Shown here piece by piece: positions 33,388 to 49,669 of a stretch of DNA of 64,000 bases (position 1 is the stretch's first letter; every line of letters starts with the position of its first letter). Source of the DNA: an uncultured Phycisphaerales bacterium. GTDB taxonomy: Bacteria; Planctomycetota; Phycisphaerae; Tepidisphaerales; Tepidisphaeraceae. The position numbers and the translations under genes were made by a program. The DNA is taken from assembly GCA_963755915.1 (NCBI GenBank), contig CAVWLP010000002.1, positions 2,624,001 through 2,688,000 of the forward strand, read 5' to 3'. A model generated the notes under the pieces. That model worked only from the letters and a program-made list of their open reading frames with translations, searched no databases and had not been told where the DNA came from.

Positions 33388-34991
33388 TTAATTTCCGGGG
33401 CTTTGCTCGTTGTGGGGGCTGTCGCTGGTGGAGATCTTTGGATCGGTTTTCTGGCCGCGGTGGAGGGAGATGTTGCGGAATTCGATCCACTGGTTGAAGG
33501 GCCGCGATTCGAGCCGCCACTGGCGGATCAAGTGCGGCGCGAGAACGATGGAATATTGGCTCATCGTGCCCGCGCCGTTGGAGACCATGTTGCCGAATTC
33601 GGCGACGGTCTCGCGGCCGGAATAATCGATGGCGACCAGGCGAACATCCTCCCTGGTGATTTTCCCCATCATTCCGACAACGATATTGGTTTTCCCCCGA
33701 TCCTGGTAAACGGCGCTGAAGAGGAATTGACCGCCAGGCCCGCCCTCGGCGGTCTGCCCCGTGCCCTCGGCGGTGGCCAGGGTTTGCCACGGGCCGGCGG
33801 CGATGCGGGCGCGAATCGCGCCGCTGCCGTTTGTGTTGGGCAATTCCGTTGCGACGGTTTCGGAGCCGGGGAGATTGCTGCTGCCCGAATAGCTGACGCT
33901 GCCATGGTCGAGAAACCACTGGACGGTGGCGGGTTCGGAGGAGCCGTGGGTGACGGGGTTGACCTTGACGACGATTTCGCGGGCGATGTCGCCGGGGTTT
34001 ACGGAGAGTGCCTGGACGTTTGTGTGGAGATCAGAGTTAAGTGGATCGCCGTCGATTTGCCACCACAGGCTGCCGGAAGACGGATTTTCGTTGATGCCGA
34101 CAATCTCGACGGAGACGCCATTGGAAAGTTGACCAATGGCAGGGGATGAGGATTGGTCAACAGCCGCGGGGGGTGGGGGAGGAGGCGGCGGGAGAGTGGA
34201 ATCGGTTTGATCGGCGAGAAGCTTGAACCCGCCGATGCCGACGCCCGTTGCGGCGGTCAGCGCGACCATGAGAAGGAAGGCCGCTGCGACTTTTTGCCAG
34301 GTAAGCATGTGGAGAACTCCTTTTGCGATGGCCGAGGCGGCGGGCGAAGCGGTGCCGCTGACGGCGGAGAGGGTGGCGCTGCGCGCGAGCGCGGCGGGCG
34401 CCGTGGTTCGGGGAATCTGATCGAGAATGACGGCCAGCGAAACGGCCGGCGAAATGGCGCTCTTTCGCAGCAGAATTTTTCGCAGGCGGTGGATGGCGCG
34501 GGAGATTCGCTTCACGGCGGCCTGCTGGGAGATTTGCAGAAGCTCGGCGGTCTCGGTGTTGGATTTGTCCTGGAGATATCGGAGGGTGAGGGCGGAGCGG
34601 TCGGACTCGCTGAGCTGGGCGATGGCGCGGTCGAGATGGGGGGAAACGGTTTCGAGCTGGGCATTCATATCCGGCTCCGTCGAGGTGGGGGCCAGGGAGG
34701 CGGCAAGATGTTCATGGCGTTTTCGGCGGCCTTCGATCTTGGCGGCGTCGAGGCTGGCGAGATGGGTGGTTTTCATGATCCAGCCAGCGAGGGAATCGCG
34801 GTTTTGGAGCTTGTGGGCTTTTCGGGCGAGAATGATGAAGACGGCCTGGCAGACGTCCTCGGCCTGCTGGGGATTGTGAAGTTGACGGCAGGCGGCGGCG
34901 TAGACGGCGTCCATATGCGCCCGACGATCTCGGCGAAGGCCTCCTGCGAGCGGGTTTCGATGAATTTCTGGAGCAATTCGCGGTCGAGCAT
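33388..34991 (-). CDS. ECF sigma-70 factor with TM helix and extracytoplasmic C-terminal extension (frameshift near 34918)
   Basis: DRELLQKF..SQEAFAEIV, AEDVCQAVFIILARKA, LAGWI, LDRAIAQL..DRSALTLRYL, AVKRISRA; TM VAAAFLLMVALTAATGVGIG. Confidence 0.88.
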
Positions 34992-35059
34992 GGCTGTTCT
35001 CAATATACCCGGACGGCCAAGAGGGTAATTGGACAGCTAAAATTCCGACGGGAATGGAT

Positions 35060-35391
35060 TCAGCGGGTGATATAGATTGCGCCGGATTCGACGGTGAGTT
35101 CGACGCCGGCGGCCTTGGCGGCTTCCTGGAGGGCGGCGTCGAGCATGACGATCGGGATCGGGCCTGACGTCCAGCCGGCGCATGAGGCCTTCGCCTTTTT
35201 TGTCGCCGGCGGTGAGGGTGATCTTCAGGCCGCGGCGTTTGCATTTGACTGGCGTGCCGTCTTCGAGCTTGGTGTTCATCGGTTTGACATAGGCGTCGAC
35301 GAAATGGACGCCGATGCCGGATTTGTCTTCGGTTTTGCGGCGGGAGCTTTTCGCGGGCGGCGGGATTGAGGTCGCAGAGTTTGGTTTTCAT
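35060..35391 (-). CDS. Small hypothetical protein, last gene of the corrinoid operon (frameshifts)
   Basis: MKTKLCDL...LEDGTPVKCKRRGLKITL; ATG overlaps the upstream stop. Confidence 0.55.
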
Positions 35392-36305
35392 ATTTTCACT
35401 TCCAGATATTGATCGATCGCTTTTCGGAACGAGGCGGATGTGGTCGGGGGTTGAGCCGCAGCAGGCGCCGATGATGTTGGCGCCGGCTTCGAGCAGGGGC
35501 ACGACGCCGGCCGACCATCTGCTCGGGCGATTCGTCGTAGAACGACTTTCATGTTGACCAGCTTGGGCTGGCCGGCGTTGGGCTGGACCATGACGGGGAG
35601 ATCGGTGGCTTTTTTGTATCGCTCGACGGCGGTTTCGCGCGCGGTTCATGTCCATGCCGGTGCCGCAGTTGAGGGCGACGATGTCGGCGCCGCGGTCCTG
35701 CATGAATTCGGCGGCGCGCTCGGGGTCGATGCCCATCATGGTGCGGAAGGTGGAGCCGTCGAGGGTCACGTCGTAGGCCATCGAGCCGATGATGCAGGGC
35801 GCGCCGGCTTCTTGGCGGCGTCGATGGCGAGGCGCAGTTCTTCCAAAGACGTTTGCGTTTCGATGATGATGGCGTCGGCACCGGCGTCGACCAGGGCTTT
35901 GGCTTGTTCGTTGAAGGCGGCGCGGACCTGGGCTTCGGTGAAATCGCCGTAAGGCTCCATCAGGCCGCCGAAGGGTCCGATGTCGCCGATGACATAGCCG
36001 GGGCGATTGCCGAACGCCTGGCGGGCGATTTCGACGGCGGCTTGGTTGATCTCGACGACTTTGCCCGCGTTGCCGTGGCGGTTGAGCATGATGCGCGGCT
36101 GCCGCCGAAGGTGTTGGTGAGAATGCAATCGGACCCGGCGTCGGCGTAGCGGCGCTGGATGGCGAGGACTTTTTCGGGATGGGTGAGGTTCCAGGCTTCG
36201 CCGCAGTTTCCCTGGACGAGGCCGGCGAACATGAGCTGCGTGCCCATGGCGCCGTCGCCGAGCAGCGGGCGGTCCGCAATTGCCTCGGAGGAGAGTTGGT
36301 TTCAT
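35388..36305 (-). CDS. Homocysteine S-methyltransferase domain protein (stand-alone MetH Hcy module; frameshifts)
   Basis: DGAMGTQL, AGSDCILTNTFG, GDIGPFG, GADAIIIET, ALNCG, QPNAG, IIGACCG. Confidence 0.9.
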
Positions 36306-36316
36306 GTTTGTGCTGC

Positions 36317-37608
36317 CTATTGCCGCGTGCTCGCGGCGGCGGATTTTTCCTGCTGCACCAGGGCGAAATGAATCGTTTCGAGAACCAGGCCCCATTTGTG
36401 TTTCCGGCTGGCGGGCTCGCAATAGCAGCCGGCGCCGGTGTTCGGGCGCTGCCAGGAGAGCACGTCGTTGAGGGGGTGGCCGAGGAGCGGTTTTTCGTGA
36501 TCGATCGCGACCATCAGGTGCTCGGCGTTGGCCATGTATTGGCACATAAACGTGTGGCCGTCATCGCCCGGGGCGGGCTCGCAATGGAGCTTCCGAATGG
36601 GATATCCCTCTTGCGCGGGCCGAGGAGGAGATGGTAGTGAAAGTAAGATCGCCCGGCCCATGTTGCTGCAGGTGGTGCCTTCGTAGCGGAAGAGAGCTTC
36701 GATGGTGCCATCGGCGTGGTGCGTCGAGCGTCAGGCGCTCGTCGGCCCAGCGGGAAAGGGCTTTGGCGTTCACGACGTACTTGGCGTTGTGATCGAGACC
36801 GACTGGGGCCGGGGGGACCTCGTCGGCGGCATTTCGGATTGTCAAGGCCCAACGTGTTGGAATATTCGGATACCCGCCGTACGGGACGCGGCGATACTGG
36901 CAGGGATTGAAGCGAGCAATTTTCGCAGGGGATCAGGTCGGTGAGACGGCCGGACGCGCTCGGTGTGATTGGTCAGTCCGAAGACGGCGAGCAGCGATTT
37001 CTTGGGCCGCAGCATTCCGGAATCGAGCACTTCGATGGCGCTGGGGGCTTTGTCGCCGTCGCGCTGCGATCAGATTCAGGAGGCGGGGCTGCTCGGAAAT
37101 ATCCCACTCGCGGATAGCCGGGGCTGTAGTGCGGGAGAACCGCCATTCCCGCGGCTTTCGGCCCAGGCGCAGAGCCGTGCGCCCGTCATGGTCATCAGAT
37201 GTTCGACAACGGCCGAGCCGAAGATTTCCAGGAAGAAATATTCGTCGGGCTTTTCATTCGGCCACAGCCTTTGTGCTTCGTACTTCAAGTTCCGGGCCGG
37301 CGCTGACGGCGACGAGAATGGCGCTGTGCGCCTGCGGCATCGAGCAGAGTTTTCTGGAGGCGTTTGCTGGTGAAGGAAACGCCGTCGATGGTGATCGAGC
37401 CGTTGGTGATGCGGAGTGCATTCGCATTGCGCGGGCGTAAACCCAGGGCTGGCCGTTGTTGGCATACCAGTGGCGCGCCCAGTCGGCGAGTTCGCGGGCG
37501 CGGCCTTCGAGGACGACATCGCCGGGGATAGCCCAGCAGCCGCTTATATTCAGCGGGCTGAACATTGATGTCCGGAAATGCGTCGAGCAATTCGATCATT
37601 GCGTTCAT
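36317..37608 (-). CDS. B12-dependent methionine synthase activation-domain-like protein with a Cys/His-rich C-terminal domain (several frameshifts; possibly two genes)
   Basis: EYKRLLGYP, VAVSAGPELE, FFLEIFGSAVVE, SGMLRPKKSLLAVFG, CENC..CQYRR, GCYC...HKW. Confidence 0.65.
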
Positions 37609-39275
37609 GCCGACACCTGGGTTCGACGTCTCGACGGGTTTGAACTGGCATCCCTCGACGAAGAAATCGAAGAATCGGGGATGGGTTTCCAGCCGGCAGT
37701 GCTCCACATTTTTGACCAGCTGTTCCAGTTCGGCGCGTTTGGATTCGGAGAGCAGGGCGATGGCCGCCCCTTCGATGGCGGCGTTGCCGACCTGGACGAT
37801 TTTCGAGTCGGGCAGATTGGGAATCAGCCCGATGCGGCGGGCGGCTTCGACGTTGAAGTGCCGCCCGAAGCCACCGGCGAGATAGAAGACGTCGATATCG
37901 TCGAAATCGACGCCGTAATTGCTGAAAGACCGTTTGCAGTCCCGCGACGTTGGCGCCCTTGGCCTGAGCCAGTTCGTTGACGTCGCTTTCGAGGAAGTAG
38001 ATGTCGTGCGGCGTCGTCGAGGGTGATGCGCGATTCGCCGTCGTTCGAAGCGGCCCAGTTCGTTCATGCGGCCGGTGCGGAGCAGTTCGCTCAGGAGATC
38101 GATCAGGCCGGAGCCGCAGATGCCCTGCGGCGTGCCGCTCCGATGACGCCGAGATGGAAACGCGCCGTCGTCGTCGATGTTGATATCTTCGATCGCGCCG
38201 TCGAGTGCGGGCATGCCGCAGGAGATCGCGCCGCCTTCAAACGCCGGGCCGGCGGGGCAGGATGCGGCGAGGATGCGGTCGCTGGTTGCCGAGGATCAAG
38301 CTCGGTATTGGTGCCGATGTCCATGATGGCGACCAGGCGATCTTCGTTCGCGAGATCGACCGCCAGCATGCAGGCCGCGGCGTCGGCGCCGACGTGGCCG
38401 CTGATGATCGGGTGCGCCGTAAACGCGCGCTTTGGGATGGATCGGAAGCAGGCAGCGGCGGCCGGTGTCGGTCAGGCTGGTGGTGGTGCGTTTGCCCTCG
38501 GCCATTTCGATTTCGGTGATGGAGCGATAGGGATTCTGGCCGATGGAGTAGACGTTCTGGCGGAAGAAGAGATCGCGCATGGTGGAGTTGCCGACGACGA
38601 CCATTTCGTAAATGGTTTTGGGATCGACGGGGAATTCTTCGATGGCGTGGGTGAGATATCCGGCGAGCGTGCGCATCAGCAGCTTGGCCGCGTTGTTGCG
38701 TGTCGTAGAAGATGCGCGACATCACGTCCGAGCCGCCGAAACGCTGCGGATTTTCGAACGAGGCGTCGGCGACGAGATCGCCGGTTTCCAGGTTGATAGA
38801 GCCGAAGGACGACGGTCGTGGTGCCGAGGTCCATGGCGATGCCGTGAATCGGGCCGGTGGAGCGGTCGATTTCCTGACCGTCGATGAGGATGCGATCGCC
38901 GTCGCGGGTGACGGCCGGGATCGAGGACCATTTTGCAGGTCGCCGGCGGCAGGCCGAAGGCGCTGCGCTCGATGCGCATCTGCCCGCGGCGCATGGTGTG
39001 GCAGCGGATCTTCGCCGGCGTCGGAAGTCGACGTGTGTCTGGCAGGAGAGGCGGAAATTGCCCTTGAGATGTCTCTCCTGCGTCGGTGGGCGGCGAGAGA
39101 CAATCCATTCCCTGCGACGATCTCCACCAGGCATTCCTTGCACTTGCCCTGTTTCTGGCAGGAGGTGGGGACCTTGACGCCCAGCCTGCTCGGCGAAATC
39201 GAAGAGGGACGGCCCCGGCGCGGCCGGGGTCGATATTCCGTTGATGGTCAGCAACAAGGCCATCGACGCACCCAT
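37605..39275 (-). CDS. ASKHA-domain corrinoid reductive activator (RACo/RamA-like, DUF4445) with N-terminal 2Fe-2S domain (frameshifts)
   Basis: RLSCQ, MDLGTTT, NPQRFGGSDVMSRI, VGNSTM, DIGTNTE, GICGSG, LAGGFG, GNAAIEGA. Confidence 0.9.
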
Positions 39276-39541: not shown

Positions 39542-40183
39542 TCAATTCCTTTTCGCCAGCCGCAGGAAGAGATCGACGGCTGAGGAGGCGTTTTGTCCGT
39601 AGCCATCCGCGCCGATTTCATCGGCGAACATCTGGCTGATGGGCGCGCCGCCAACGGCCATTTTGATCTGTCCGCGGCCGGCGGCTTTGAAGCCGTCGAT
39701 GACCGTTTTCATGTAGGTCATGGTGGTGGTGAGCAGCGCGCTCATGCCGATGATCGTCGGATTGCACTTGTCGGCGGCGGCCATGAATTTTTCGACGCTC
39801 TGATCGACGCCGATGTCGTGGACTTCAAAGCCCGCGCCCTCGGCCATCATGCAGACGAGATTTTTGCCGATGTCGTGCAGGTCGCCGCGGACGGTGCCCA
39901 TGAGCAGGACGCCGGTGCGGTCGTCGCCTCTGCCTTGGCGCTGAGCAGCGGCTTGAGGACGGCCATGCCGGCTTTCATGGCGCGGGCGGCGATCAGCACC
40001 TCCGGCACATAGAGAATATTGTGCTTGAAATCTTCGCCGACGACGCTCATGCCGGCGATCAGGCCGTCGGTGAGAACTTCCTGGACCGCGCCGGCCTTCG
40101 GCCAGGGCGTCCTTGGTCATCTGCTCGACTTCCTTGGCTTTGCCTTCGTAGAGGCATTGATTCATCAGGGCGTAGTCGATCAT
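39542..40183 (-). CDS. Cobalamin-binding corrinoid protein (MtbC/MetH B12 module; frameshifts)
   Basis: YVPEVLIAARAMKAG, GTVRGDLHDIGKNLV (DxHxxG), MSALLTTT, VGGAP. Confidence 0.93.
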   Translation of the reverse strand: MIDYALMNQCLYEGKAKEVEQMTKDALAEGRRGPGSSHRRPDRRHERRRRRFQAQYSLCAGGADRRPRHESRHGRPQAAAQRQGRGDDRTGVLLMGTVRGDLHDIGKNLVCMMAEGAGFEVHDIGVDQSVEKFMAAADKCNPTIIGMSALLTTTMTYMKTVIDGFKAAGRGQIKMAVGGAPISQMFADEIGADGYGQNASSAVDLFLRLAKRN

Positions 40184-41250
40184 CGGGCGCTCCCGGCCAG
40201 TTCGGCCGTTTGGCGTTGAATTCCTCGAGGGCTTCGAGCATGGCAAGGATGTTTTGCCTCGGCATTCCGGGGCTGGTGCCGCCGCCGACGGAGAGGATGA
40301 TTCCCTGCCCGCCGGAGCCTTCGAGAACGTCGAGCGTGGCTTCCTTCACTTCCTCGGGCGTTCCGCGAACGGCAATTTCCAGCGGATTTACGTTGCCCAT
40401 CAGGCACATGCGGTCGCCGACGCGCTGCTTCACTTCGCGGATATCTTTCTGCTTGCCCCAGTTCAGCACGTTGAAGCCGCAATCGGGAAGGTGATCGAGA
40501 CAGGCGTCGACTTCGGCGTCGTTGTGATAGATCTTCACCCAATCCTTCGGGAAGGCGTCGCAGATGCGCTTGAGATAGGGATGGGCGAATTCCATGTAGT
40601 GCTCTTCGTTGATGAAGCCGACGATGTCGTCGAGGATGAAAATGCCTTCGACGGTGTCGCCCATGACTTTGTGCTGAGCCTTGAGCCAGTCGATGACGAC
40701 GCGGGTGCAGAGGTCGATGAGCTTGTGGCAGCCTTCGGGGTTTTCGACGAGCTCGACCATGAGGTTGGTGGTGCTGCGGACGAAGCCAGCGGTGCAGAGC
40801 GGGCCGCGCGAGGTGACCAGGGGCAGGATATAGCCGTGGTCGAGAATGCGCTGGCGGATCCATTTTGATGCGGTGCAGGGTCAGGGCCGCGAAGGCGTCG
40901 GCGTCTACTTCGTATTCGGGGAACTTGTCGATGTCTTCCAGGCGGTAGAGGGTGTGGTATTCGCTGGGGGTGTTGTCCTGCCAGAACTTGATCTTGGCGC
41001 CGAGGACCGAGGGCTCGGCCGCCATGCCGTATTCCATCCACCAGGAGGGGACGAAGATGATGTCGGGAAACTCCCGCATGATCTTCAGGTTCGATTGAAA
41101 CCAGAGCTCCGGATCGAGGTAGTAGTCCATGTGCTTGATGCCGAGATAGCCGGGAATCCACGGGCTATCGATGATCATGGCCATGGGGATTTTATCCAGC
41201 TTCTCAAGACGTGCGGCGCGCTTGAAGGTTTCCCACTGCTGGGGACGCAT
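40180..41250 (-). CDS. UroD/MtaA-CmuA-family corrinoid-dependent methyltransferase (frameshifts)
   Basis: RGPLC, ILDD, EFAHPYLKRI, IYHND, CLMGNVNP, GTPEEV, ILSVGGG..PGMP..NI.AM. Confidence 0.85.
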   Translation of the reverse strand: MRPQQWETFKRAARLEKLDKIPMAMIIDSPWIPGYLGIKHMDYYLDPELWFQSNLKIMREFPDIIFVPSWWMEYGMAAEPSVLGAKIKFWQDNTPSEYHTLYRLEDIDKFPEYEVDADAFAALTLHRIKMDPPAHSRPRLYPAPGHLARPALHRWLRPQHHQPHGRARRKPRRLPQAHRPLHPRRHRLAQGSAQSHGRHRRRHFHPRRHRRLHQRRALHGIRPSLSQAHLRRLPEGLGEDLSQRRRSRRLSRSPSRLRLQRAELGQAERYPRSEAARRRPHVPDGQRKSAGNCRSRNARGSEGSHARRSRRLRRAGNHPLRRRRHQPRNAEAKHPCHARSPRGIQRQTAELAGSAR

Positions 41251-41289
41251 AGGGGGGTTCCTGGCCTTTCGGAAAACTCGATTTTCGTG

Positions 41290-41325
41290 ATTATAGTAAG
41301 CGTTTACTGAATCGCCTAGTATAAT
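41290..41325. promoter_or_regulatory. Divergent promoters with a central LacI-type operator AGTAAGCGTTTACT (41295-41308)
   Basis: TATAAT on + (41320-41325) and on - (41290-41295); palindrome fits GNAANCGNTTNC. Confidence 0.65.
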
Positions 41326-41369
41326 CTCCTTTGCCGCCGGAGTCGAATCGGGCGGAATCTGGACGAATA

Positions 41370-42944
41370 GTGTACACACTTCGCGAAAAATTGACCCAGC
41401 CTAACCGTTTCCTGCTCGGAATCGAGCTGGTTACGACGCGGGGGACGATGGAGGATCGGCAGGCGGTTCAGACGCGAGAGTTTGCCGGGGACTTGGTTCA
41501 TTGCGACAGCGTGGATTGGGTATCTATAACGGATAACGCGGGGGGAAATCCGCAGCTAAGTCCGCTGGCGCTGGGGAAGCCGATTCTTTATGCCGGCAAG
41601 GAGGTGCTCATCCACCTCTCATGCAAGGATTTCAATCGCAATGGTTTGGAGAGCGCGGCGTGGGAGATGGCCAGCGAGGGGTTTCATAATATTCTGGCGC
41701 TCAGCGGCGACTATCCGGCCGGTGGGTATCACGGGCGGGGAAAGCCGGTGTTTGATATCGATTCGATCGGGCTGCTGACGATGCTGGGGGAAATGAACCG
41801 CGGGCTGGCGCGGCCGCATGTGAAGGACGGCGCGGCGCGGGCGACGGATTTTTTTGCGGGGGCTGTTGCCACGAATTTTAAGCGGCATGAGAACGAGGTG
41901 ATGCCGCAACTGCTGAAGCTGGAGAAGAAGATTGAATGCGGGGCGAAATTTATTATCGCACAGATTGGATACGACGCGCGCAAGAGTCATGAGATGCTCT
42001 GCTATATGCGGCGCGTGGGAGTCGGAGATGTTCCGCTGATTGGCAACGTGTTTCTGCTCTCGGCGGCGGTGGCGCGGTTTTTCCGAAGGCAGGCGATTCC
42101 CGGGGTGATTATTTCTGATGCGCTGCTGGAGGAATGTGAGCGCCGGGCGAGGGATGCGGCATTTTTCCGGGAACTGGCGGCGAAACAGCTTGCGATTTTC
42201 CGCGGGTTGGAGTTTGCCGGGGGATATCTTGGGGGCGTACACAATATTGAAGATGTGGGGGCGATCGTGGAGATGGAGCGATCGTTTGCCGGGGGGGACT
42301 GGAAGCAGTTTGCGCGGGAGATTCAGTATCCGTTGCCGGGAGAGTTTTATTTTTTTGAGCGGGATCCTGTGACGGGCCTCGCGGATGAGACGTCGGTGCG
42401 GGAACGGCCGGCGCCTCGGAAGGTCTCCGTTGGTTATCGATTTAGCAAAGGGGTGCACCACGCAGTGTTTACGCCGGGGACGATGCTGAATCGGCTGGGG
42501 CGGGCGATTTATGCGTCTTCGAAAGATACGCGGCGGGGGCCGCTGGCGCTGCGAATTCTTGAGCATGCGGCCAAATCGGCGATGTTTGGGTGCCGGGACT
42601 GCGGGGATTGCTCGCTGCCGGACATCGCGTTTCTCTGTCCGGAATCACAGTGCGCCAAGAATCAGCGGAATGGGCCTTGCGGGGGGACGCGGGATGGGAA
42701 ATGCGAGGTGCATGACTTCGAGTGCATCTGGAGCCGGGCGTATGACCGGCTGAAATCTGAGGGGCGGGAGCGGGAATTGCTCGCCCATGCGCCGGTGATT
42801 CAGGATGAAACGCTGCGCGGGACATCGAGCTGGGCGAACGCGCTGCTGGGGCGGGATCACACGGCTTGCGAGGCGAATCGCGCTGCGACGATTTCAAAAG
42901 AAAGGAAGAAGACGAGCGATGTTCAGAGTTCCGCGACTGTTTAA
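41370..42944 (+). CDS. metF: Methylenetetrahydrofolate reductase with fused C-terminal Cys-rich MetV-like domain
   Basis: SITDNAGG, IHLSCKDFNR, LALSGDYP, GAKFIIAQ; C-terminal CRDCGDC..CPESQCAKNQRNGPCGG..CEV..CIW. Confidence 0.85.
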   Translation: MYTLREKLTQPNRFLLGIELVTTRGTMEDRQAVQTREFAGDLVHCDSVDWVSITDNAGGNPQLSPLALGKPILYAGKEVLIHLSCKDFNRNGLESAAWEMASEGFHNILALSGDYPAGGYHGRGKPVFDIDSIGLLTMLGEMNRGLARPHVKDGAARATDFFAGAVATNFKRHENEVMPQLLKLEKKIECGAKFIIAQIGYDARKSHEMLCYMRRVGVGDVPLIGNVFLLSAAVARFFRRQAIPGVIISDALLEECERRARDAAFFRELAAKQLAIFRGLEFAGGYLGGVHNIEDVGAIVEMERSFAGGDWKQFAREIQYPLPGEFYFFERDPVTGLADETSVRERPAPRKVSVGYRFSKGVHHAVFTPGTMLNRLGRAIYASSKDTRRGPLALRILEHAAKSAMFGCRDCGDCSLPDIAFLCPESQCAKNQRNGPCGGTRDGKCEVHDFECIWSRAYDRLKSEGRERELLAHAPVIQDETLRGTSSWANALLGRDHTACEANRAATISKERKKTSDVQSSATV

Positions 42945-43849
42945 GTTGATCGGGGAGTTGATGAACAATTCCTTCGCGGGCGGCGCGGGCGTGGAAGGCG
43001 CGCGATCTGGCGGGGTTTCAGAAGCTGGCAATGATTCAGACGGACCTGGGCGCCGATTACCTGACGCTGAATATCGACGGGACGCAGTCGATGCGGGTGA
43101 GGCCCAAAGAAATGTTCGAGTTTATTCCGGAACTCATTCCGGCGATTCAGGAAGTGACGCGGGTTCCACTGTCTTTTGACAACCCATCGGCGGAATTTCA
43201 TCGGCGCTGCCTGGAGGTTTATGATCCGAAAAAGGGGGGGCGGCCGATCATCAATTCGGTGGCGGCGTCGCGGCGCGAACTGGACGAGATGCTGGAGCTG
43301 GCGAAGCATTTCGACACGATGGTGATCGGGATGGCATCCGAAAAGTTCGTCGACGGCGGGTCGGCGCAGTGTCTTTCGGCGGATGATGTTTATTGCGCGG
43401 CGCATCGCCTGGTGGAATTGCTGCGGGAGAGGTCGGGGCGGCAGTGCTCGGAGATCATCATCGATACCGGGCTGGCGCCAGTGGGGGCGGATACGTATGG
43501 GCTGGTGAACATGGGGCTCGATGCGATGCGGGCGATTCGGAGGAGTCCGGAGCTGGCGGGGGTGCATTTGTCGGTGGGGCTGACGAATGTTTCGTTCGGC
43601 ATGCCCAAGGAAATCCGCACCTCGGTGGAGAACGCGTATCTGACGCTGGCGGTGGAGGCGGGGCTGGATTTTGTGCTGGGGAATCCGGAGAAGCATTTGC
43701 GGTTGCTGGACGAGGAGGACCGTTACGTTCAGTTGGTGGCCGAGGCGCTGGAGTGCGGCCGGCCGGGAGGCGGGGAGACGCAGGAGGAGGCAGGCTTCCG
43801 GCAGGCGGCGAAAATCATCGGGCTGTTCAGTGAACACGAAATCATCTGA
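42919..43849 (+). CDS. Pterin-binding methyltransferase (AcsE/MetH folate-module-like; frameshift near 42980)
   Basis: LIGELMN, GADYLTLN, PLSFDNP, IINSV, IIDTG, VGLTNVSFGMP. Confidence 0.85.
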
Positions 43850-43890
43850 AAACTTCGAGGAACTGGCGCAGGATTTCGCGCACGCGAGCG

Positions 43891-45119
43891 GTGTGGCTGC
43901 GCGTGGGCCGGCTGATCGACGGGCGAAGCGATCGGCCGCTGCTAAATGCGGATATTTTGTTCGACGCGGGGGGGATTCAACTCGTTGCCGCTGGAGGGGA
44001 CGTTCCAACGCGAGGGGTGCCTGATGCAGTGTTGCCCGATTACACGGCGCTTCCGTGTTTGATTGAGGCGCACGCCCACATGTTTCTGGAAGGCGCGCCG
44101 ATTGACGCTAAGCGGCGCGAGGCGCATTTGAGGGAAATGCCCGAGGCGATGCTGGCAAAAGCGCGGCGGCGCTGGGCGAAGATTTTGAAATGCGGAATCG
44201 GGGCGATCCGGGATGCGGGGGACAGGCACGGGGTGGGATTGAAGCTGGCGGCGGAAGCGCGGGAGAGTCGTGGAAAGGTGGCGTCGACTCCGCTGATCGA
44301 CAGTCCGGGAGCGGCGATTCATCACCGCGGGAGATATGGGGGGTTCATGGCGGAGGCGATCGAGGAATATGCGGGGGCGGATGAGTGTGTGGCGGCGCGG
44401 GTGGCCGCGGGGGCGGATCGGATCAAGCTGCTGGTGAGCGGGATCATCAATTTTCAGGAGGGGAAGGTAACGACGGTGCCGCAGATGTTGCCGGATGAAG
44501 TTGCGGCATTCACGCGCGCGGCCAGGAGCCACGGGCGGCAGACGTTTGCGCATGCTTCGGGCGTGGAGGGGATTGCCAACTCGATCGAAGGGGGCGTGAC
44601 GACGGTGGAGCACGGTTTTTTCATCACACGCGAGCAGCTTGGGCAGATGCGCGACGCCGGGATCGGGTGGGTGCCGACGTTTGCGCCGGTGCAACTCCAG
44701 ATCGACCGGGCGGATGAGCTGGGATGGGATGAGAAGGTGGTGTCGAACCTTAAGCGTATCATCGATTGGCACCGGGAGATGTTGCGATATGCGCATTCGA
44801 TTGGCGTGAAAATTATTGCGGGGAGCGATGCGGGTTCATGCGGGGTTCCGCATGGGCTGGGATTCCTGCAGGAGCTTTGCCAGATGGAAGGGGCGGGGAT
44901 TCCGGCGATGGCGGTGATTCAAGCCGCGACGGGCGTGAGCGCCGCGGCGCTGAATTTCGCGGAGCCGATCGGGCGGATTGCGCCGGGGTTCCGGCGCGGT
45001 TCATACTTACCCGGCATGATCCGCTTCCCGGCGTTGCTAATCTGATGAAGGAGAAGACGGTGATATTCGATGGCGCCGCCGTCCAGTGTGAGACGGAGAT
45101 TGATACCGACGGTCTTTAG
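43891..45119 (+). CDS. Amidohydrolase family protein (frameshift near 44995; start may be GTG 43830)
   Basis: EAHAH, GADRIKL, FAHA, VEHG, AGSDAG, GRIAPG. Confidence 0.88.
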
Positions 45120-47994
45120 CCGCCGAGGCGATAAAAGCTTTCCGGCGGTCCGAGGAAGCTGGGCTTAACGCCGCCCAGGTCGACGACGATTTTTTCCAGG
45201 ACGATTGCAGGATCGACCATCCAGAATTTCAGGGTGTGGTAGCCGGGCGAATCGATGGTCATAGGGATTTTCACTTCGCGAATGCTGTTGATGACGGATA
45301 TCTGCCAATCGCGCTGAGTGTTGTCGGCCAGGGAATCGACGACCTGGGGCGTCTGATCGTCGATTGAAATTGCGAACCGCAATCCGCGGCCGGGAACAAA
45401 GGCCTGCGTTGGTGCGATCATTACGGAGGCTTCGGCGTTGCCGGAGTGAAAGAGATACATTTTATACTCGAGACAAGGATTTCCGGTTGGCGGATCGGTG
45501 CTGGAGGCGATGGTCATCGCCGAAAGCGTGCGGCCGTAACCGGCGATTCGATACCACTGCGAGGATTTGGAATCGATCTTTTTTGTAAAGTGCTCGGCTT
45601 CCATCGAGACGCAGCGGTCGGATTCGACGAAACCGTCGAGGTTCTGCGGCGTGATTTCGCGAGGATTTACGGCTGTGCATGTCACGGGAACGGATTTTCC
45701 AGCGCCGCTAATGGTGATCGTGGCGGTGGATGTGCCCCGCGGCGCTTTGTTCCAGTCTACCTGCACATTCAGGCGCAGGTCTTCATTTACAGTTCCGCTT
45801 TTGTTGCTCAGGAGCACCCAGCTTTTGCTTGCTTCGGCTTTGAACTGAAATGATTTGCGGCCGCGATTGAAAACGTCGATATAGCGGCTCTGGCGATTGA
45901 AGGAGTCGATATCAGGCAAAATCGCCGGCGCGGCATCGCCGGGCCAGGCGGAGGGTGAACCTTCGACGGCGACTCCGAGCGCGCCGCGCGAGGCACGTCG
46001 ATTCTCGTCACCTTGGGCATGCGATTTTCCGGCGGCTGCTGCCATCTCGTATAGCCGATGTGCGTCTGGTCCATCATGTGGTCCCATCGGCCGTTGCCCA
46101 GCGTTTGGTTGTAATAGTTCGAAAGAGCCTGGTCTTTTTGAAAGAGTGTTTCCGCGTCGTCGGCGAGGTGATTCGCGCTGGCCCGGCCCTGCGCGGCAAA
46201 GAGATGATTTTTGGCGACGGTGATAAAGAGATTCGCCACGTTCTCGTACGCTTCGGCGGGATCGATCACGAATTCGAAGAACGGGTCCTTCGCGTCATCG
46301 GGCAATTCTGCTTGAAGCTTCCCGGCTTCGGTGACGATCGCCTGGTAATCGGCAAGCACCTGTTCGGCTTCGCCGTAGTTCACGATGCTGAAGGTGTCCG
46401 GCGAAAGTAGCTCGGGCTTGATCCGGCCATTGAGTTTTTCGTATCGCCAGATCAGATCGGCGATCTGATCGGCGTGCTCTGGCCCAAAATTCTGTGCGGC
46501 CCACTGGCGGGTAAATTCGATCAGGTTTTCGCCGTTCCAACGGGTGGGGTTCCAGGCCAGGCTCAGAAAAAATTCGGCAGGGAACTCTACGTGCTTCAAA
46601 TGCCCGACGTTCACGATCCAGATCCGGTCGGCGCCCATCCGCGAGGCGAGGTTCATCTGCTCCCAGATTTTCGGGATGGGATTGGTGTCGATCCACTTAT
46701 AATTCCGCGGATCGCCGACGTAATCGAGGTGGTAGTAAACCCCGGCCCCGCCGGCGCGATTGCGCTCGGCTGGCGTGGGGAGCCGCCGGATGTTGCCCCA
46801 GTTGTCGTCGGACCAAAGCAGCGTAATATCATCGGGCACGCGCATCCCCGCTTCGTAGTATCCCTGCACTTCTTTATACAAGCACCAGAGCTGCGGAACT
46901 TTGGTCACATCTGGATTGATCCGCCGGGCGATGATCTGCCGCTGGTCGGCGACAATCTTTTCCAGCATCGCGATATTCGCCGCCATGGTGCCGGTGGACG
47001 CCATCGGGGTGTCGATCTTGCCGCGCATTCCAACGGTGATGATGCTCTCGAAATGGTCGTTGCGGACGAGCCCCTCGTCCCAGAATTGGCGCAACTGCGC
47101 GGGGTTGGTCGCGTAATTCCACCTCTGCGCCGAATATCCTGCCCGGCTCCATTCCTTGTCGGCGCGCATCATCGGCTCGACGTGGCTCGTCCCCATCACG
47201 ATCCCATATTCGTCCGCCAGCTTCGGGTTCAGCGGGTCGTCCTGGTTGAAGCAGGAGTTCCACATGGCGGGCCAGAGGTAATTGGCTCTCAGGCGAAGCA
47301 GCAGCTCGAAAATTTTTTCGTAGAACTGGTGATTGTACCCGCCGAATTTTTCGTTCACCCAGCCGGTGAGGTCCGGGTCTTCGTCATTGAGGAAGATCCC
47401 GCGATATTTCACGGCCGGCGGGCCCTGGATGAATACACCGGGCCTGGCGTAGACCGCGTCGCGATGCCGGACGGGAATATCTCCCCACCAATACGAGGGC
47501 GAGACGCCCATCTGCTGGGAGAGATCGTAGATGCCGAAGATGGTTCCGCGCTTATCGCTGCCGGCGATGACCAGCGCGTCGGCGACGCCTGGCAGGGGGT
47601 TCTGGACGACCGCGGTAAGGGTTGATTCCCATTTGCCCGCGATCGAACTCGCGTCGATTTTTCCATCGTGGACGAGCCGATCGACGATGGGGCTGTTGCC
47701 GAGCGTGCCGATGATGATCGCGTGAGCGGCGAGTTTCGCGGGGTCGGTTACGATCGGCGCGGTGATGCCGGTGACGCGGGCGATGTCGGCCTGTAGGTCG
47801 CCGGCGGCGCGGGTCACGCCAGGGAAATCGTGCGGATCGACGTAGAGATTCGCCGCCGATTGGCTTTCGACGATCGCGAAGCTGCCGGGCTCGGAAGTGG
47901 TTTGAACGTACGAATTCTGCCCGAGCGCGGGGCAATGGAGACCGAGGGTTGCCAGGAGAAGACCCGCGACAAAAGAGGCGAACCTCCGTGGCAT
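45116..47994 (-). CDS. Glycoside hydrolase family 115 (xylan alpha-(4-O-methyl)glucuronidase-type; frameshift near 45990)
   Basis: Signal peptide; GSDKRGTIFGIY, VKYRGIFLNDE, RLRANYLWPAMW, GTSHVEPM, SDDNWGN, GVYYH.DYVG.PRNYKW. Confidence 0.92.
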
Positions 47995-48007
47995 AACCCT
48001 CTGGACA

Positions 48008-48021
48008 AGTAAACGATTTCT
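48008..48021. promoter_or_regulatory. LacI-type operator AGTAAACGATTTCT upstream of GH115
   Basis: Fits GNAANCGNTTNC; 13 nt from the ATG; 12/14 identical to the reverse complement of the 41295 site. Confidence 0.6.
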
Positions 48022-48276
48022 AGGCCAAAAATATATGAACGCCGCAGGGAAGCCTACGCGATTTTCAGCCTCGCGGCAATCGGGGAAGAGGGGGGAAGAA
48101 ACGGCGGCGTGAATCGCGATTCTGGCGGCGAAGTCGCGACAGCGGTTTTAGGCGGAAAGCGGCCGGCGGCGGGAAAGCCGGTGACATCCGCGGTTTTAAG
48201 ATGAGCGGAACAGGAGGCGATCATCACCGGCCCGACGGCCGTTGCGATCGCCCGTAACGCGCTGCACTTCATCGCG

Positions 48277-48942
48277 CTAAACTTCATGCGCTGCCTCCAG
48301 AGGTTGCTTCTGAGTATCCCCAAGAAATCCCGGCAGATCGGCCGCCTGCGCGGTGCCGGCGAGGCCGACGCATTCGTTGACGGTCTTCTTTAGATCTTCT
48401 TGAATCGCCTCGCTGTCAATGCGCGGGCGGAAGAAATTGGCCCATGCAAATTCGGCAAAAGGGGACGATGTTTTTGCGTAACCGCCGGCGGCGCGTACAA
48501 AGCCGGCAAGACTGCGATAGGGATCGTCTTTCAGTTGCCTGAGGGATTTGGGCAGGGTGCGCAAGGGCTTGCGCTTGCCGCGGGCGTTGAAAGGATGGAC
48601 AAAACTGTCGGCCTTCATGCGCTTCCAGAAGTCGCGGGGGGATAAGTGCGAAAAATCGGCCTCGATTTGCATCGGGGCGGTTTTGAAATCTTCTTTCAAG
48701 AGGGCCAGGGCGAGGTGGTGGTGATCGATGACGTAGGCCTGGTCTTTGGGGCCGAGGACGACGCGGATGGGGGTTTCGAGGATGAATTCGACCATTTCGG
48801 CGGGCTGTTTCTCGAGGGCGCGCAGGCGTTTTCGTTTTTGTTTGACTTCGAGCATGCCGACGGTGAGCTGCGTGGGCCGCAGGCGGGAGATGGCGATGCT
48901 TTCCATCCGGGGTTGGGCGCTCGCAGGTTGGGGGATGGACAT
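48277..48942 (-). CDS. ParB-like nuclease-domain protein (ParBc_2 type)
   Basis: LRPTQLTVG, IDHHH, DDPYRSLA, FAEFAWA. Confidence 0.82.
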   Translation of the reverse strand: MSIPQPASAQPRMESIAISRLRPTQLTVGMLEVKQKRKRLRALEKQPAEMVEFILETPIRVVLGPKDQAYVIDHHHLALALLKEDFKTAPMQIEADFSHLSPRDFWKRMKADSFVHPFNARGKRKPLRTLPKSLRQLKDDPYRSLAGFVRAAGGYAKTSSPFAEFAWANFFRPRIDSEAIQEDLKKTVNECVGLAGTAQAADLPGFLGDTQKQPLEAAHEV

Positions 48943-48988
48943 TCTGGCCTCCTCGGTGGGGGATTGTAGCGGATGTTGCGGGGTAGAA

Positions 48989-49669
48989 TCATCCAAAAGT
49001 TTTTCGCTGCTGATGCTGCTCTCGATAGACATGGTGGTTATGGGAAATCTGGCGGGTGAAATCAGCGAGGCGCTGGGCGTCGGCGTGGCCGGTCTGATGA
49101 TGCCAGGTTTCGCGTTTGAAGGGGATCACCTGGACCAGGGGGGTTCCGCGTTTTAGTGCCTGTTTTGATGTGCGCGGCATCAGGCAGACGGCGGGGAAAT
49201 TGACGTGGGCATAAAACGTGTCGGTGTCGACCACGCCGGCGAGAATTCGGAATGCGTTTGGCTCGTGATTCAGCGGGGGCAGGTAGAGGGTGGAATAGCC
49301 GGGCGGGGTGACGATGATCCAGGGGTTGATGAACTTGATGACCGGGGAATCGGCCCAGGGAGAGCCGGCGAGTTGGGCGGGGTGATGGAGCTCGATGGTG
49401 GCGTCGCCGTTGGGCGAGTCGAAGGTGAGGGCGCCGGATTCGTTGAGATCGAAATTGACGTCGCCGGGGAGGGGGATGATGTAGCCGGTGGTCATGGCGT
49501 CGAGGAAGGGGGGGCATTGCTTCACCGTGTGCATCGTCCCCGCCACGTCGGGCAACTCGAGGTCGCCGGCCAGATCGCGATACCAGTGTGGCAATCCTCT
49601 GCTGGCCGGAAATGGTGCGGGAATCCAATCCTTTTCAGCCGCGTGGAATTCGATCACTTTGTCACTCAT
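48989..49669 (-). CDS. DUF6065-like hypothetical protein
   Basis: LPHWY, KQCPPFLDAMTTGYII, KFINPW, TPPGYS, GVVDTD, GTPLVQVIPFKR. Confidence 0.7.
   Translation of the reverse strand: MSDKVIEFHAAEKDWIPAPFPASRGLPHWYRDLAGDLELPDVAGTMHTVKQCPPFLDAMTTGYIIPLPGDVNFDLNESGALTFDSPNGDATIELHHPAQLAGSPWADSPVIKFINPWIIVTPPGYSTLYLPPLNHEPNAFRILAGVVDTDTFYAHVNFPAVCLMPRTSKQALKRGTPLVQVIPFKRETWHHQTGHADAQRLADFTRQISHNHHVYREQHQQRKTFG

Follow-up and report, generated by a model that had tools for sequence, protein, structure and literature searches.

Aryl O-demethylases of acetogens and Desulfitobacterium combine a UroD-superfamily methyltransferase with a corrinoid protein, an ATP-dependent activator of the RACE/RACo type, and a pterin-binding methyltransferase (PMC3727330; PMC6739815; PMC10418091). 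The same set of genes surrounds a divergent promoter in the stretch of DNA analyzed here, which we call the window (64,000 nucleotides from an uncultured Phycisphaerales bacterium; G000:C2:2624001-2688000), and a gene for a GH115 alpha-(4-O-methyl)glucuronidase converges on this cluster. Gene content, operator sites, and recurrence in other genomes make it moderately probable, in our judgment, that the cluster mediates cobalamin-dependent methyl transfer in a glucuronoxylan regulon, namely the B12-dependent O-demethylation of 4-O-methyl-D-glucuronate (MeGlcA), either free or on a short aldouronate. The donor in the aryl systems is a phenyl methyl ether, whereas here it would be an aliphatic sugar ether. 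Moreover, the conserved acceptor enzyme here is a homocysteine methyltransferase, with a tetrahydrofolate (THF) branch in only 10/80 loci; the genes occur in soil Acidobacteriota and Planctomycetota instead of strict anaerobes; and the methyltransferase forms a tight clade of its own (one full-length representative covers the whole clade in a library clustered at 50%, and the next full-length relatives are 35-41% identical).

The methionine synthase MetH provides a second comparison. Its homocysteine domain and cap plus B12 domain are represented here, as is, in this lineage, its pterin-binding domain, and a structural model suggests its activation-domain fold as well; these parts are encoded by separate genes in two divergent operons rather than in one polypeptide, and they are accompanied by a UroD-like module, RACo, and an extra cysteine-rich domain on the activation-like protein. 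The donor-side enzyme of the MtgBCD system reportedly belongs to the MttB superfamily. In the aerobic bacterium Ruegeria pomeroyi, MtgBCD couples B12-dependent demethylation of glycine betaine to methionine synthesis through a shared corrinoid protein, and its donor-side glycine betaine methyltransferase functions in osmolyte catabolism (PMC12478193), whereas the enzyme here is UroD-like and would function in polysaccharide catabolism. Marine bacteria likewise remove an O-methyl group that stands in the way of using a monosaccharide from a polysaccharide, by means of a cytochrome P450 that demethylates 6-O-methyl-D-galactose (PMC6292453). In our system, a methyl cation equivalent would instead be kept by transfer to homocysteine or THF, with no requirement for oxygen. 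The P450 enzyme is said to be encoded with glycan-degrading genes and to act oxidatively, with the carbon lost as formaldehyde.

A UroD/MtaA-like methyltransferase and a corrinoid protein likewise act on a small donor in the CdmBCA chloromethane system of Acetobacterium (PMC13222342). The CdmBCA structure (PDB 9rui) matches the UroD-like protein at E 2.3e-9, which is a remote similarity, and the loci described here have no halomethane context, but rather a homocysteine methyltransferase gene and carbohydrate-active neighbors. The Cmu clusters of methylotrophs, which are chloromethane systems with a UroD/MtaA-like methyltransferase and a corrinoid protein as well, also contain genes for a pterin-binding methyltransferase and a homolog of methylenetetrahydrofolate reductase (MTHFR). 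Type 1 mlp clusters, which are widespread, encode MtaA-like proteins, a corrinoid protein, and a RACE activator without a THF methyltransferase; they contain two or three Mlps (at least the paralogs Mlp2 and Mlp3), are found in obligate anaerobes (mostly Firmicutes), and are linked to methyl-sulfur or methyl-selenide metabolism (PMC10418091). Identity with these mlp clusters was rejected, because each locus here has a single UroD-like gene, the module includes a homocysteine methyltransferase, and the phyla are different.

Gene content of the divergent cluster

The genome (G000; 6,626,754 bases, 59% G+C, three contigs, 81% completeness, and 8% contamination) has a divergent promoter at ~41250-41370 of the window, from which five genes run leftward on the minus strand and three genes, led by the MTHFR gene, run rightward on the plus strand. 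The gene content assigned in an earlier reading of this DNA from its letters alone (hereafter, the sequence-only reading) was confirmed by Pfam, with the correction that indels of 1-2 bases break most of the genes and that gene coordinates are approximate. In order from the promoter, the genes are as follows.

Leftward:
40167..41250, minus strand: UroD-like (MtaA/CmuA-related) methyltransferase, proposed substrate:corrinoid methyltransferase; Pfam URO-D; one frameshift near 40863
39542..40183, minus strand: corrinoid protein (B12-binding_2 cap plus B12-binding domain), with DLHDIG as the DxHxxG motif; internal frameshift pair
37606..39263, minus strand: RACo/RACE-type reductive activator (2Fe-2S ferredoxin, middle, and ASKHA domains); coding sequence spread over three frames
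36302..37599, minus strand: protein of ~429 residues; N-terminal half with a predicted MetH-activation (AdoMet-binding) fold, C-terminal half rich in invariant cysteines
35388..36304, minus strand: homocysteine S-methyltransferase domain protein, proposed methylcorrinoid:homocysteine methyltransferase; Pfam S-methyl_trans; frameshifted
Rightward:
41370..42944, plus strand: MTHFR with a C-terminal DUF5981 fusion; intact, GTG start
42881..43849, plus strand: pterin-binding methyltransferase (methyl-THF:corrinoid type); start approximate
43891..45119, plus strand: amidohydrolase; one frameshift near 44990
Converging on the amidohydrolase gene:
45116..47994, minus strand: GH115 alpha-(4-O-methyl)glucuronidase; signal-like N-terminal sequence; one frameshift near 45979

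As had been noticed before, the stop codons of GH115 (45116-45118, minus strand) and the amidohydrolase gene (45117-45119, plus strand) overlap. Between 35300 and 47994, the window is separated from its closest relative, L017, by ~70 indels of one or two bases over 6 kb, at positions that differ between the two assemblies. The cluster genes are intact in the congeneric locus L013, and L014 aligns end-to-end without frame breaks. Pseudogenization was rejected on these grounds, and the frameshifts look like long-read assembly errors rather than decay. Protein analyses used the intact L013 orthologs in place of the frameshifted window genes; the window UroD-like protein is 93-97% identical to the intact L013 protein.

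Protein families of the methyltransferase module

The intact UroD-like ortholog matches Pfam URO-D at 146.9 bits and TIGR01463 (MtaA/CmuA) at 110.4 bits, which does not reach the cut-off of 235.4, and it scores below the cut-offs of the NCBIfam equivalogs MtaA (81.3; cut-off 400) and MtbA (75.6; cut-off 600). Its sequence matches in the PDB are no better than E ~1e-10. An AlphaFold2 model (predicted local distance difference test score of 94.6) is closest to MtaA (PDB 4ay7; template modeling scores of 0.81/0.85) and then to UroD (0.77). The ligands of the thiol-activating zinc in MtaA are presumably a His-x-Cys motif plus a later Cys. In the alignment to 4ay7, HiCG is replaced by HnDA and pGCG by vGGG, which leaves two of the three zinc ligands absent; among 36 relatives with identities down to 26%, His242 does not vary, and conservation of Asn243 and of an upstream Asp is at least 90%. 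Because two of the three MtaA thiol-zinc ligands are missing, we infer that the UroD-like enzyme is a donor-side methyltransferase and not a thiol-side enzyme.

The corrinoid protein resembles MtgC/MtbC-type proteins, and the intact activator ortholog contains Fer2, Raco_middle, and RACo_C_ter domains. The 429-residue protein has no sequence match in Pfam, NCBIfam, or the PDB; in its model, the first 215 residues can be overlaid on the activation domains of MetH proteins (among them 1j6r; TMt 0.82, E 1e-9, Foldseek), and all of its Foldseek matches fall in the N-terminal half. A disordered linker joins this fold to the C-terminal half (approximately residues 265-429; L013:14963-16252), which has eight invariant cysteines and a CxxCxxxxC motif. 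This cysteine-rich domain has no usable match in the ESM Atlas and may be a metal or Fe-S domain that acts in reactivation. The homocysteine domain matches S-methyl_trans at 202.3 bits, with cysteines read in LNCG and GACCG in the window translation, and, as a single module, does not reach the cut-off of the metH equivalog. The amidohydrolase matches generic relatives only, among them prolidase (Xaa-Pro dipeptidase), imidazolonepropionase, and amide hydrolases. A canonical MetH is encoded elsewhere (C3:656969-657631), and MetE was not found in the genome. As judged from these domains, the core of the cluster appears to be a split MetH in which the UroD-like module replaces the folate module.

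An operator common to the cluster and xylan genes

Two similar 15-mers had been reported in the divergent promoter and just before GH115, and both were recovered at these positions. The first, at 41294-41308, reads TAGTAAGCGTTTACT (reverse complement, AGTAAACGCTTACTA) and the second, at 48008-48022, reads AGTAAACGATTTCTA; they match at 13/15 positions, and both fit the LacI-type core GNAANCGNTTNC.

41294..41308, no strand: operator O1, near-palindromic, LacI-type, core GTAAGCGTTTAC; located between the UroD-like and MTHFR operons, in their divergent promoter
41290..41295, minus strand (ATTATA on plus): TATAAT box of putative promoter function, facing the UroD-like operon
41320..41325, plus strand: TATAAT box facing the MTHFR operon; corresponding position occupied by ATTATAAT in relatives
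48008..48022, no strand: operator O2; left half-site intact, right half-site off at two positions

O2 lies 13 bases upstream of the GH115 start codon (47992-47994). With up to two mismatches, AGTAAACGNTTNCTA has four matches in the window, including both strands of O1 and one unrelated site at 11012, whereas shuffled windows (n = 100) gave a mean of 0.32 matches and 0/100 reached four. The two TATAAT boxes said to flank O1 are present, but a consensus promoter scan did not call them; its sole call is on the minus strand (TCGACT, 17 nt, TATACT; 41346-41318), with a TATACT (41323-41318) that overlaps the TATAAT box. From the position of O1, a single repressor dimer could shut both divergent promoters. 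The reported absence of a riboswitch also held, in that two tRNAs are the only Rfam matches of the window at gathering thresholds, and neither the window nor seven related loci yielded an S-adenosylmethionine (SAM), B12, or THF riboswitch. Likewise, the repressor gene lies outside the window; the genome has 14 LacI helix-turn-helix (HTH) matches, none of them in the window and the nearest at C2:2743385. In the L014-L016 promoters, which read TTGACC/TTGACT, 17 nt, and TAGAAT/TAGAAA/TAAATA, the operator fills the spacer, and the self-complementary octamer ATTATAAT lies 11-13 bases from the operator in L013-L016.

Exact and near-exact pattern scans of the whole genome returned xylan genes and a LacI gene, as the sequence-only reading had predicted. 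There are three exact copies of AGTAAACGNTTNCTA on both strands, compared to 0.063 expected from base composition, and they lie at the cluster promoter, at GH115, and at the promoter of a GH10 xylanase gene. This third copy (C2:2372220) sits between a TTGACG/TAGCAT promoter-like pair and the start of a 991-residue secreted GH10-domain protein. Eight sites fall within three mismatches of a 16-mer consensus, including five on the 93-kb contig C1, and 28 sites fall within four mismatches. The exact core GTAANCGNTTAC occurs 10 times compared to ~3.7 expected, with five of these occurrences on contig C1. This contig carries a xylan locus (GH52, ABC transporter, GH44, GH10, and LacI genes), and its sites mark where genes for GH52, GH44, PEP-CTERM, and DUF1559 proteins, as well as an operon with GH10, begin. 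The LacI gene (C1:51357) is frameshifted and flanked by sites, one of which is ~170 bp upstream of its HTH, and its product is probably the cognate repressor. Contig C1 could be a contaminant; the operator that it has in common with the cluster argues for an origin in the same organism. In addition, a core with one mismatch is located 51 bp upstream of the gene for a CE15 glucuronoyl esterase, and a site with two mismatches on C1 directly adjoins a gene for a xylose-isomerase-like TIM barrel. Core hits at C2:1190294 and C2:1207852 have no adjoining carbohydrate genes, and the hit at C3:1395093 is in an unrelated context. Overall, the sites are palindromes of 14-16 bp with a central CG that recur at promoters of functionally related genes, as is characteristic of LacI/GalR-type operators. 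A second LacI-type motif, AGGTAAnCGnTTACCT, is present at C2:3445436 and 3446518 (L098), together with two LacI genes and genes for a DUF1559 protein and a PcRGLX-like rhamnogalacturonan lyase; this locus appears to be a separate LacI regulon with the same core and different flanks (GG..CC; GGTAA..TTACC).

Conservation within the genus

Methyltransferase orthologs (89-96% identical) were found in 5/12 congeneric genomes and in 0/48 more distant relatives searched, three of which carry only paralogs of 35-37% identity. All five congeneric loci are syntenic, including GH115 beside the cluster. The motif, whose conservation in orthologous promoters had been set as a check on the sequence-only reading, is kept in the divergent promoter of 5/5 loci and upstream of GH115 in 4/4 loci where that promoter is present, amid diverged flanks, and each 20-kb locus has two or three operator sites at the cluster and GH115 promoters. 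In 4/5 congeneric loci, a 2.2-kb GH67 gene lies between GH115 and the amidohydrolase gene; in L013 (L013:5341-7365), its ATG overlaps the GH115 stop, and its product has no signal peptide. GH67 was not found anywhere in G000 and appears to have been lost in the window lineage (G000 and G001; the window and L017), which would therefore account for the overlapping GH115 and amidohydrolase stops. Three congeners have a CE15 gene between the genes for the 429-residue protein and the homocysteine methyltransferase, with a further operator copy in that region. Across the genus, the module and GH115 occur in the same 6/13 genomes, and GH67 in four of those six; because the module and GH115 genes are physically linked, this overlap represents one linked island gained or lost and is not independent evidence.

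Recurrence of the module beside glucuronidase genes

Database searches at E 1e-20 returned >2,300 relatives of the methyltransferase, the best 120 of which are 80-91% identical to it. Among 81 full-length sequences from Acidobacteriota and Planctomycetota, 191/356 positions are invariant and pairwise identity is 79-100%. A genome scan gave 502 relatives, from which the best 80 loci were kept, three of them from congeners; counts out of 80 refer to this set. Genes were counted by tblastn with L013 proteins; contig ends shorten some flanks, which makes the counts lower bounds.

UroD-like methyltransferase: 80/80 loci
Corrinoid protein: 79/80 loci
RACo: 75/80 loci
429-residue protein: 69/80 loci
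Homocysteine methyltransferase: 65/80 loci
MTHFR, pterin-binding enzyme, and amidohydrolase, as a trio: 10/80 loci
GH67: 16/80 loci
GH115: 7/80 loci

These counts point to a conserved core that consists of the UroD-like methyltransferase, the corrinoid protein, RACo, the MetH-activation-like protein, and the homocysteine methyltransferase. Co-occurrence with glucuronidase genes, which had been put forward as a check on the proposal, was found at two levels. At the level of adjacency, GH67 or GH115 lies within 10 kb in 20/80 loci from two phyla (matches of at least 150 residues), and 7/20 of these also have CE15; chance adjacency would amount to ~0.4/80, by a rough estimate from mostly one GH67 gene per ~5-Mb genome. 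The lineages show at least five distinct glucuronidase arrangements.

Arrangement 1: GH115-GH67 convergent on the amidohydrolase gene; Tepidisphaeraceae
Arrangement 2: GH115 directly upstream of UroD on the same strand; a Lacipirellulaceae, a Pirellulales, a Planctomycetota, and a Granulicella metagenome-assembled genome (MAG)
Arrangement 3: UroD-MFS-GH43-GH67-...-corrinoid on one strand; five Acidobacteriota MAGs, with CE15 two genes upstream in one
Arrangement 4: GH67 just after the homocysteine methyltransferase gene; Solibacteraceae, Bryobacteraceae, and Sulfopaludibacter
Arrangement 5: GH67 upstream on the opposite strand; two loci

The MFS gene of arrangement 3 was called in L024 and L050. 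Other repeated neighbors, sugar-acid enzymes among them, are genes for enolase-superfamily and IlvD/Edd dehydratases, short-chain dehydrogenases, xylose-isomerase-like TIM barrels, GH2, GH43, and arabinofuranosidases, and an RND efflux pair recurs beside the module in one lineage.

At the level of genomes, GH67 or GH115 is present in 76/80 module genomes. Among the 60 carriers without an adjacent glucuronidase gene, 50 have GH67 elsewhere (44/50 plus 6/10), and the remaining 10 include six with GH115 (3/6 plus 3/4) and four with neither. In an even, order-level sample of 151 genomes around one acidobacterial carrier, GH67 was found in 7/7 module carriers compared to 48/144 module-free genomes (55 GH67 genomes in total), where two of the seven were known beforehand as carriers, kin are not independent, and counts are uncorrected for phylogeny. 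The baseline of 48 genomes includes G128 and G136, both flagged unpublished, and the 48/144 figure covers GH67 alone, while 76/80 counts GH67 or GH115. The distribution of the module is patchy.

Proposed pathway and its significance

Because GH67, GH115, and CE15 recur independently beside the module, and in the genus share its operator, demethylation of MeGlcA is the simplest reading of these loci. All known substrates of GH67, GH115, and CE15 contain (Me)GlcA. MeGlcA is the proposed donor because it is the sole methylated product that these enzymes release, and the module is built to transfer methyl groups to homocysteine or THF. Both acceptor routes named in the sequence-only reading are encoded, by the homocysteine methyltransferase gene and by the genes for the pterin-binding methyltransferase and MTHFR.

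In this pathway, secreted GH10, CE15, and GH115 enzymes, joined in relatives by cytoplasmic GH67, would free MeGlcA; their genes and operators are observed. The UroD-like enzyme would then transfer the ether methyl group to Co(I) of the corrinoid protein and leave glucuronate. From the corrinoid protein, the homocysteine methyltransferase would pass the methyl group to homocysteine to give methionine or, alternatively in this lineage, the pterin-binding enzyme would pass it to THF, which MTHFR would link to the one-carbon pool; the domains of these enzymes are observed, and the direction of transfer in both branches is predicted. By analogy with their families, RACo and the MetH-activation-like protein would restore Co(I) after oxidation. 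A LacI-family repressor, probably that of contig C1, would act at O1 on both divergent promoters and at O2 on GH115; the sites are observed, and the binding and the inducer are predicted. With operators at both the cluster and GH115, the system would be switched on with the xylanases. The module appears not to be a housekeeping system, as indicated by the canonical MetH elsewhere, the patchy distribution, and the absence of a riboswitch.

A wider claim, on which we are evenly balanced, is that hundreds of soil and peat Acidobacteriota and Planctomycetota share by horizontal transfer a near-invariant 4-O-methylglucuronate:homocysteine methyltransferase that acts as a modular B12-dependent methionine synthase. 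If true, this enzyme would be the first corrinoid enzyme to split an aliphatic sugar methyl ether and would supply the missing first step of MeGlcA catabolism. Methyl groups of hemicellulose would reach methionine and one-carbon pools directly, rather than as methanol or formaldehyde, and corrinoid methyl transfer, known for aryl ethers, methanol, amines, and thiols, would also take in sugar ethers, as an oxygen-independent counterpart of the P450 route for 6-O-methylgalactose. The B12 demand, methionine supply, and one-carbon metabolism of dominant soil and peat bacteria would then be coupled to hemicellulose turnover. Such an enzyme would also be useful for complete xylan conversion, in which MeGlcA and aldouronates are recalcitrant leftovers. 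Searches of openly accessible full-text literature found no described removal of the ether methyl group of MeGlcA, in line with the sequence-only reading, and no paper linking MeGlcA, GH115/GH67, or xylan to corrinoid demethylation.

Alternative interpretations

Several observations weigh against MeGlcA as the donor. We know of no precedent for cleavage of an aliphatic sugar methyl ether by a corrinoid enzyme, and this reaction is chemically harder; corrinoid O-demethylases act on aryl methyl ethers, in which phenolate is a good leaving group. Homocysteine, which is the sole sink in most lineages, is by itself poorly suited to absorb a catabolic flux of methyl groups. A search of G000, which is 81% complete, did not find UxaC or UxuA; an oxidative or enolase-type route for glucuronate is possible. 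In 60/80 loci, there is no alpha-glucuronidase gene within 10 kb, and the upstream genes are of various kinds (peptidases, kinases, efflux pumps, and regulators). Four of the 80 module genomes yielded neither GH67 nor GH115, GH67 is common without the module (48/144 genomes), and G014, a single genome flagged unpublished, has GH115 without the module. A LacI-type operator was found upstream of the methyltransferase gene in 3/80 loci, all from the family of the window, and in 0/80 control stretches, so LacI control appears to be lineage-specific. Within G000, a second GH115 gene (C2:1426710) lies among glycosyltransferase genes and has no operator site, and the right half of the GH115 operator in the window is degenerate; better palindromes are present at the equivalent place upstream of GH115 in L013, L014, L016, and L017. 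Finally, near-invariance of the methyltransferase across phyla would also fit a universal small donor.

This last point is met by an explanation in which the five-gene core is an alternative methionine synthase that uses another small donor (methanol, a methylated amine or sulfonium compound, or methyl-THF by way of an unusual module), and the xylan link reflects hitch-hiking on mobile islands. Its core is a MetH in pieces (homocysteine domain, B12 domain, and activation-like fold), identity of 79-100% across two phyla would be expected for a universal substrate and recent transfer, a glucuronidase neighbor is absent in 60/80 loci, and related logic has been published for glycine betaine (PMC12478193). 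Hitch-hiking leaves unexplained the adjacency in at least five arrangements across lineages, and the 76/80 genome-level co-occurrence, the operator common to GH10, GH115, and CE15, the presence of a canonical MetH, and the lack of any SAM, B12, or THF riboswitch among those searched for all argue against this explanation, which we find doubtful. It is also unlikely, in our view, that the module O-demethylates methoxylated aromatics (ferulate, vanillate, or guaiacyl fragments) released from lignin-carbohydrate complexes in the course of glucuronoxylan degradation, with transfer of the methyl group to homocysteine or THF. The commonest neighbor is GH67 (16/80), which acts on small aldouronates and, in L013, lacks a signal peptide (one N-terminus read); in five loci, GH67 and GH43 lie between the methyltransferase and corrinoid genes, where MeGlcA is the sole expected methylated product. 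In addition, no ring-cleavage or vanillate genes are among the annotated neighbor families, and the best sequence match of the enzyme to any solved structure is only E ~1e-10. In favor of an aromatic donor, characterized UroD-superfamily substrate-side methyltransferases use phenyl methyl ethers (PMC10418091; PMC3727330), CE15 cuts lignin-MeGlcA esters, such that a demethylase of lignin fragments could be regulated together with CE15 and GH115, and esterase and arabinofuranosidase genes adjoin the module in a few loci.

Two further explanations question the enzyme and the operator, respectively. UroD proper is a cofactor-free decarboxylase, and the UroD-like protein might act on a uronate in some other way (decarboxylation or methanol elimination), with the corrinoid genes as a separate system. 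A 35% identical paralog in G025, directly before a GH67-GDSL fusion with no corrinoid gene in the 20 kb covered, and another in G052, among sugar oxidoreductase genes, would be consistent with such an activity; yet each genome with such a paralog encodes a stand-alone corrinoid protein at another place, the corrinoid gene follows in 79/80 loci and RACo in 75/80, and the best structural match is the corrinoid methyltransferase MtaA, all of which makes a non-methyltransferase very unlikely. Likewise, the two 15-mers could be alike by chance or could represent a generic LacI-family core of unrelated regulons, in that the generic GNAANCGNTTNC occurs 420 times in the genome, another LacI regulon uses GGTAA..TTACC at the rhamnogalacturonan-lyase locus, and the core hit at C3:1395093 has an unrelated context. 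This possibility, already disfavored, is one that we would scarcely entertain, given the three exact copies compared to 0.063 expected, all at xylan-related promoters, the sites kept in place in congeners despite diverged flanks, and a density of two or three sites per 20-kb congeneric locus compared to 28 in the whole genome (up to four mismatches, 16-mer).

Paralogs and additional neighboring genes

Genes of the MR_MLE (enolase) superfamily flank the module in L046, L060, L066, L079, L088, and L092, and in L046, L060, and L079 they are accompanied by a gene for a xylose-isomerase-like TIM barrel; no homolog of this neighbor was found in G000 at E 1e-20. Enolase-type acid-sugar dehydratases abstract the carboxylate-adjacent proton and expel the 4-substituent. 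The MR_MLE neighbors could act on the product of the module or even release the 4-O-methyl group as methanol. In a Planctomycetota MAG, a fusion of CE15 glucuronoyl esterase and GDSL esterase is encoded directly downstream of the module (L047:16271-18430), and a small open reading frame (~110-160 residues, no Pfam match) follows the homocysteine methyltransferase gene in 22/80 loci (for example, L022:15824-16150).

The G025 paralog (484 residues; L109:8887-13314) lies directly upstream of the GH67-GDSL esterase fusion in a xylan locus with LacI, MFS, GH52, BD-FAE esterase, and GH127 genes, and its genome encodes a stand-alone corrinoid protein away from this locus. This paralog appears to represent a second UroD clade tied to alpha-glucuronidase. 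The G052 paralog (37% identical; L107:8269-14802) is accompanied by genes for an AraC regulator, DUF6807, ThuA, and a GFO/IDH/MocA oxidoreductase, which is a sugar-oxidation context with no corrinoid genes nearby. In the window itself, a gene for an ECF sigma factor (Sigma70_r2 plus r4; 33388-35300) is just downstream of the homocysteine methyltransferase gene, and the same frame continues into a long proline- and beta-rich region. On the other side, a ParB-like nuclease (ParBc_2) gene lies upstream of GH115 (48277-49032) and is next to GH115 in L017 as well.

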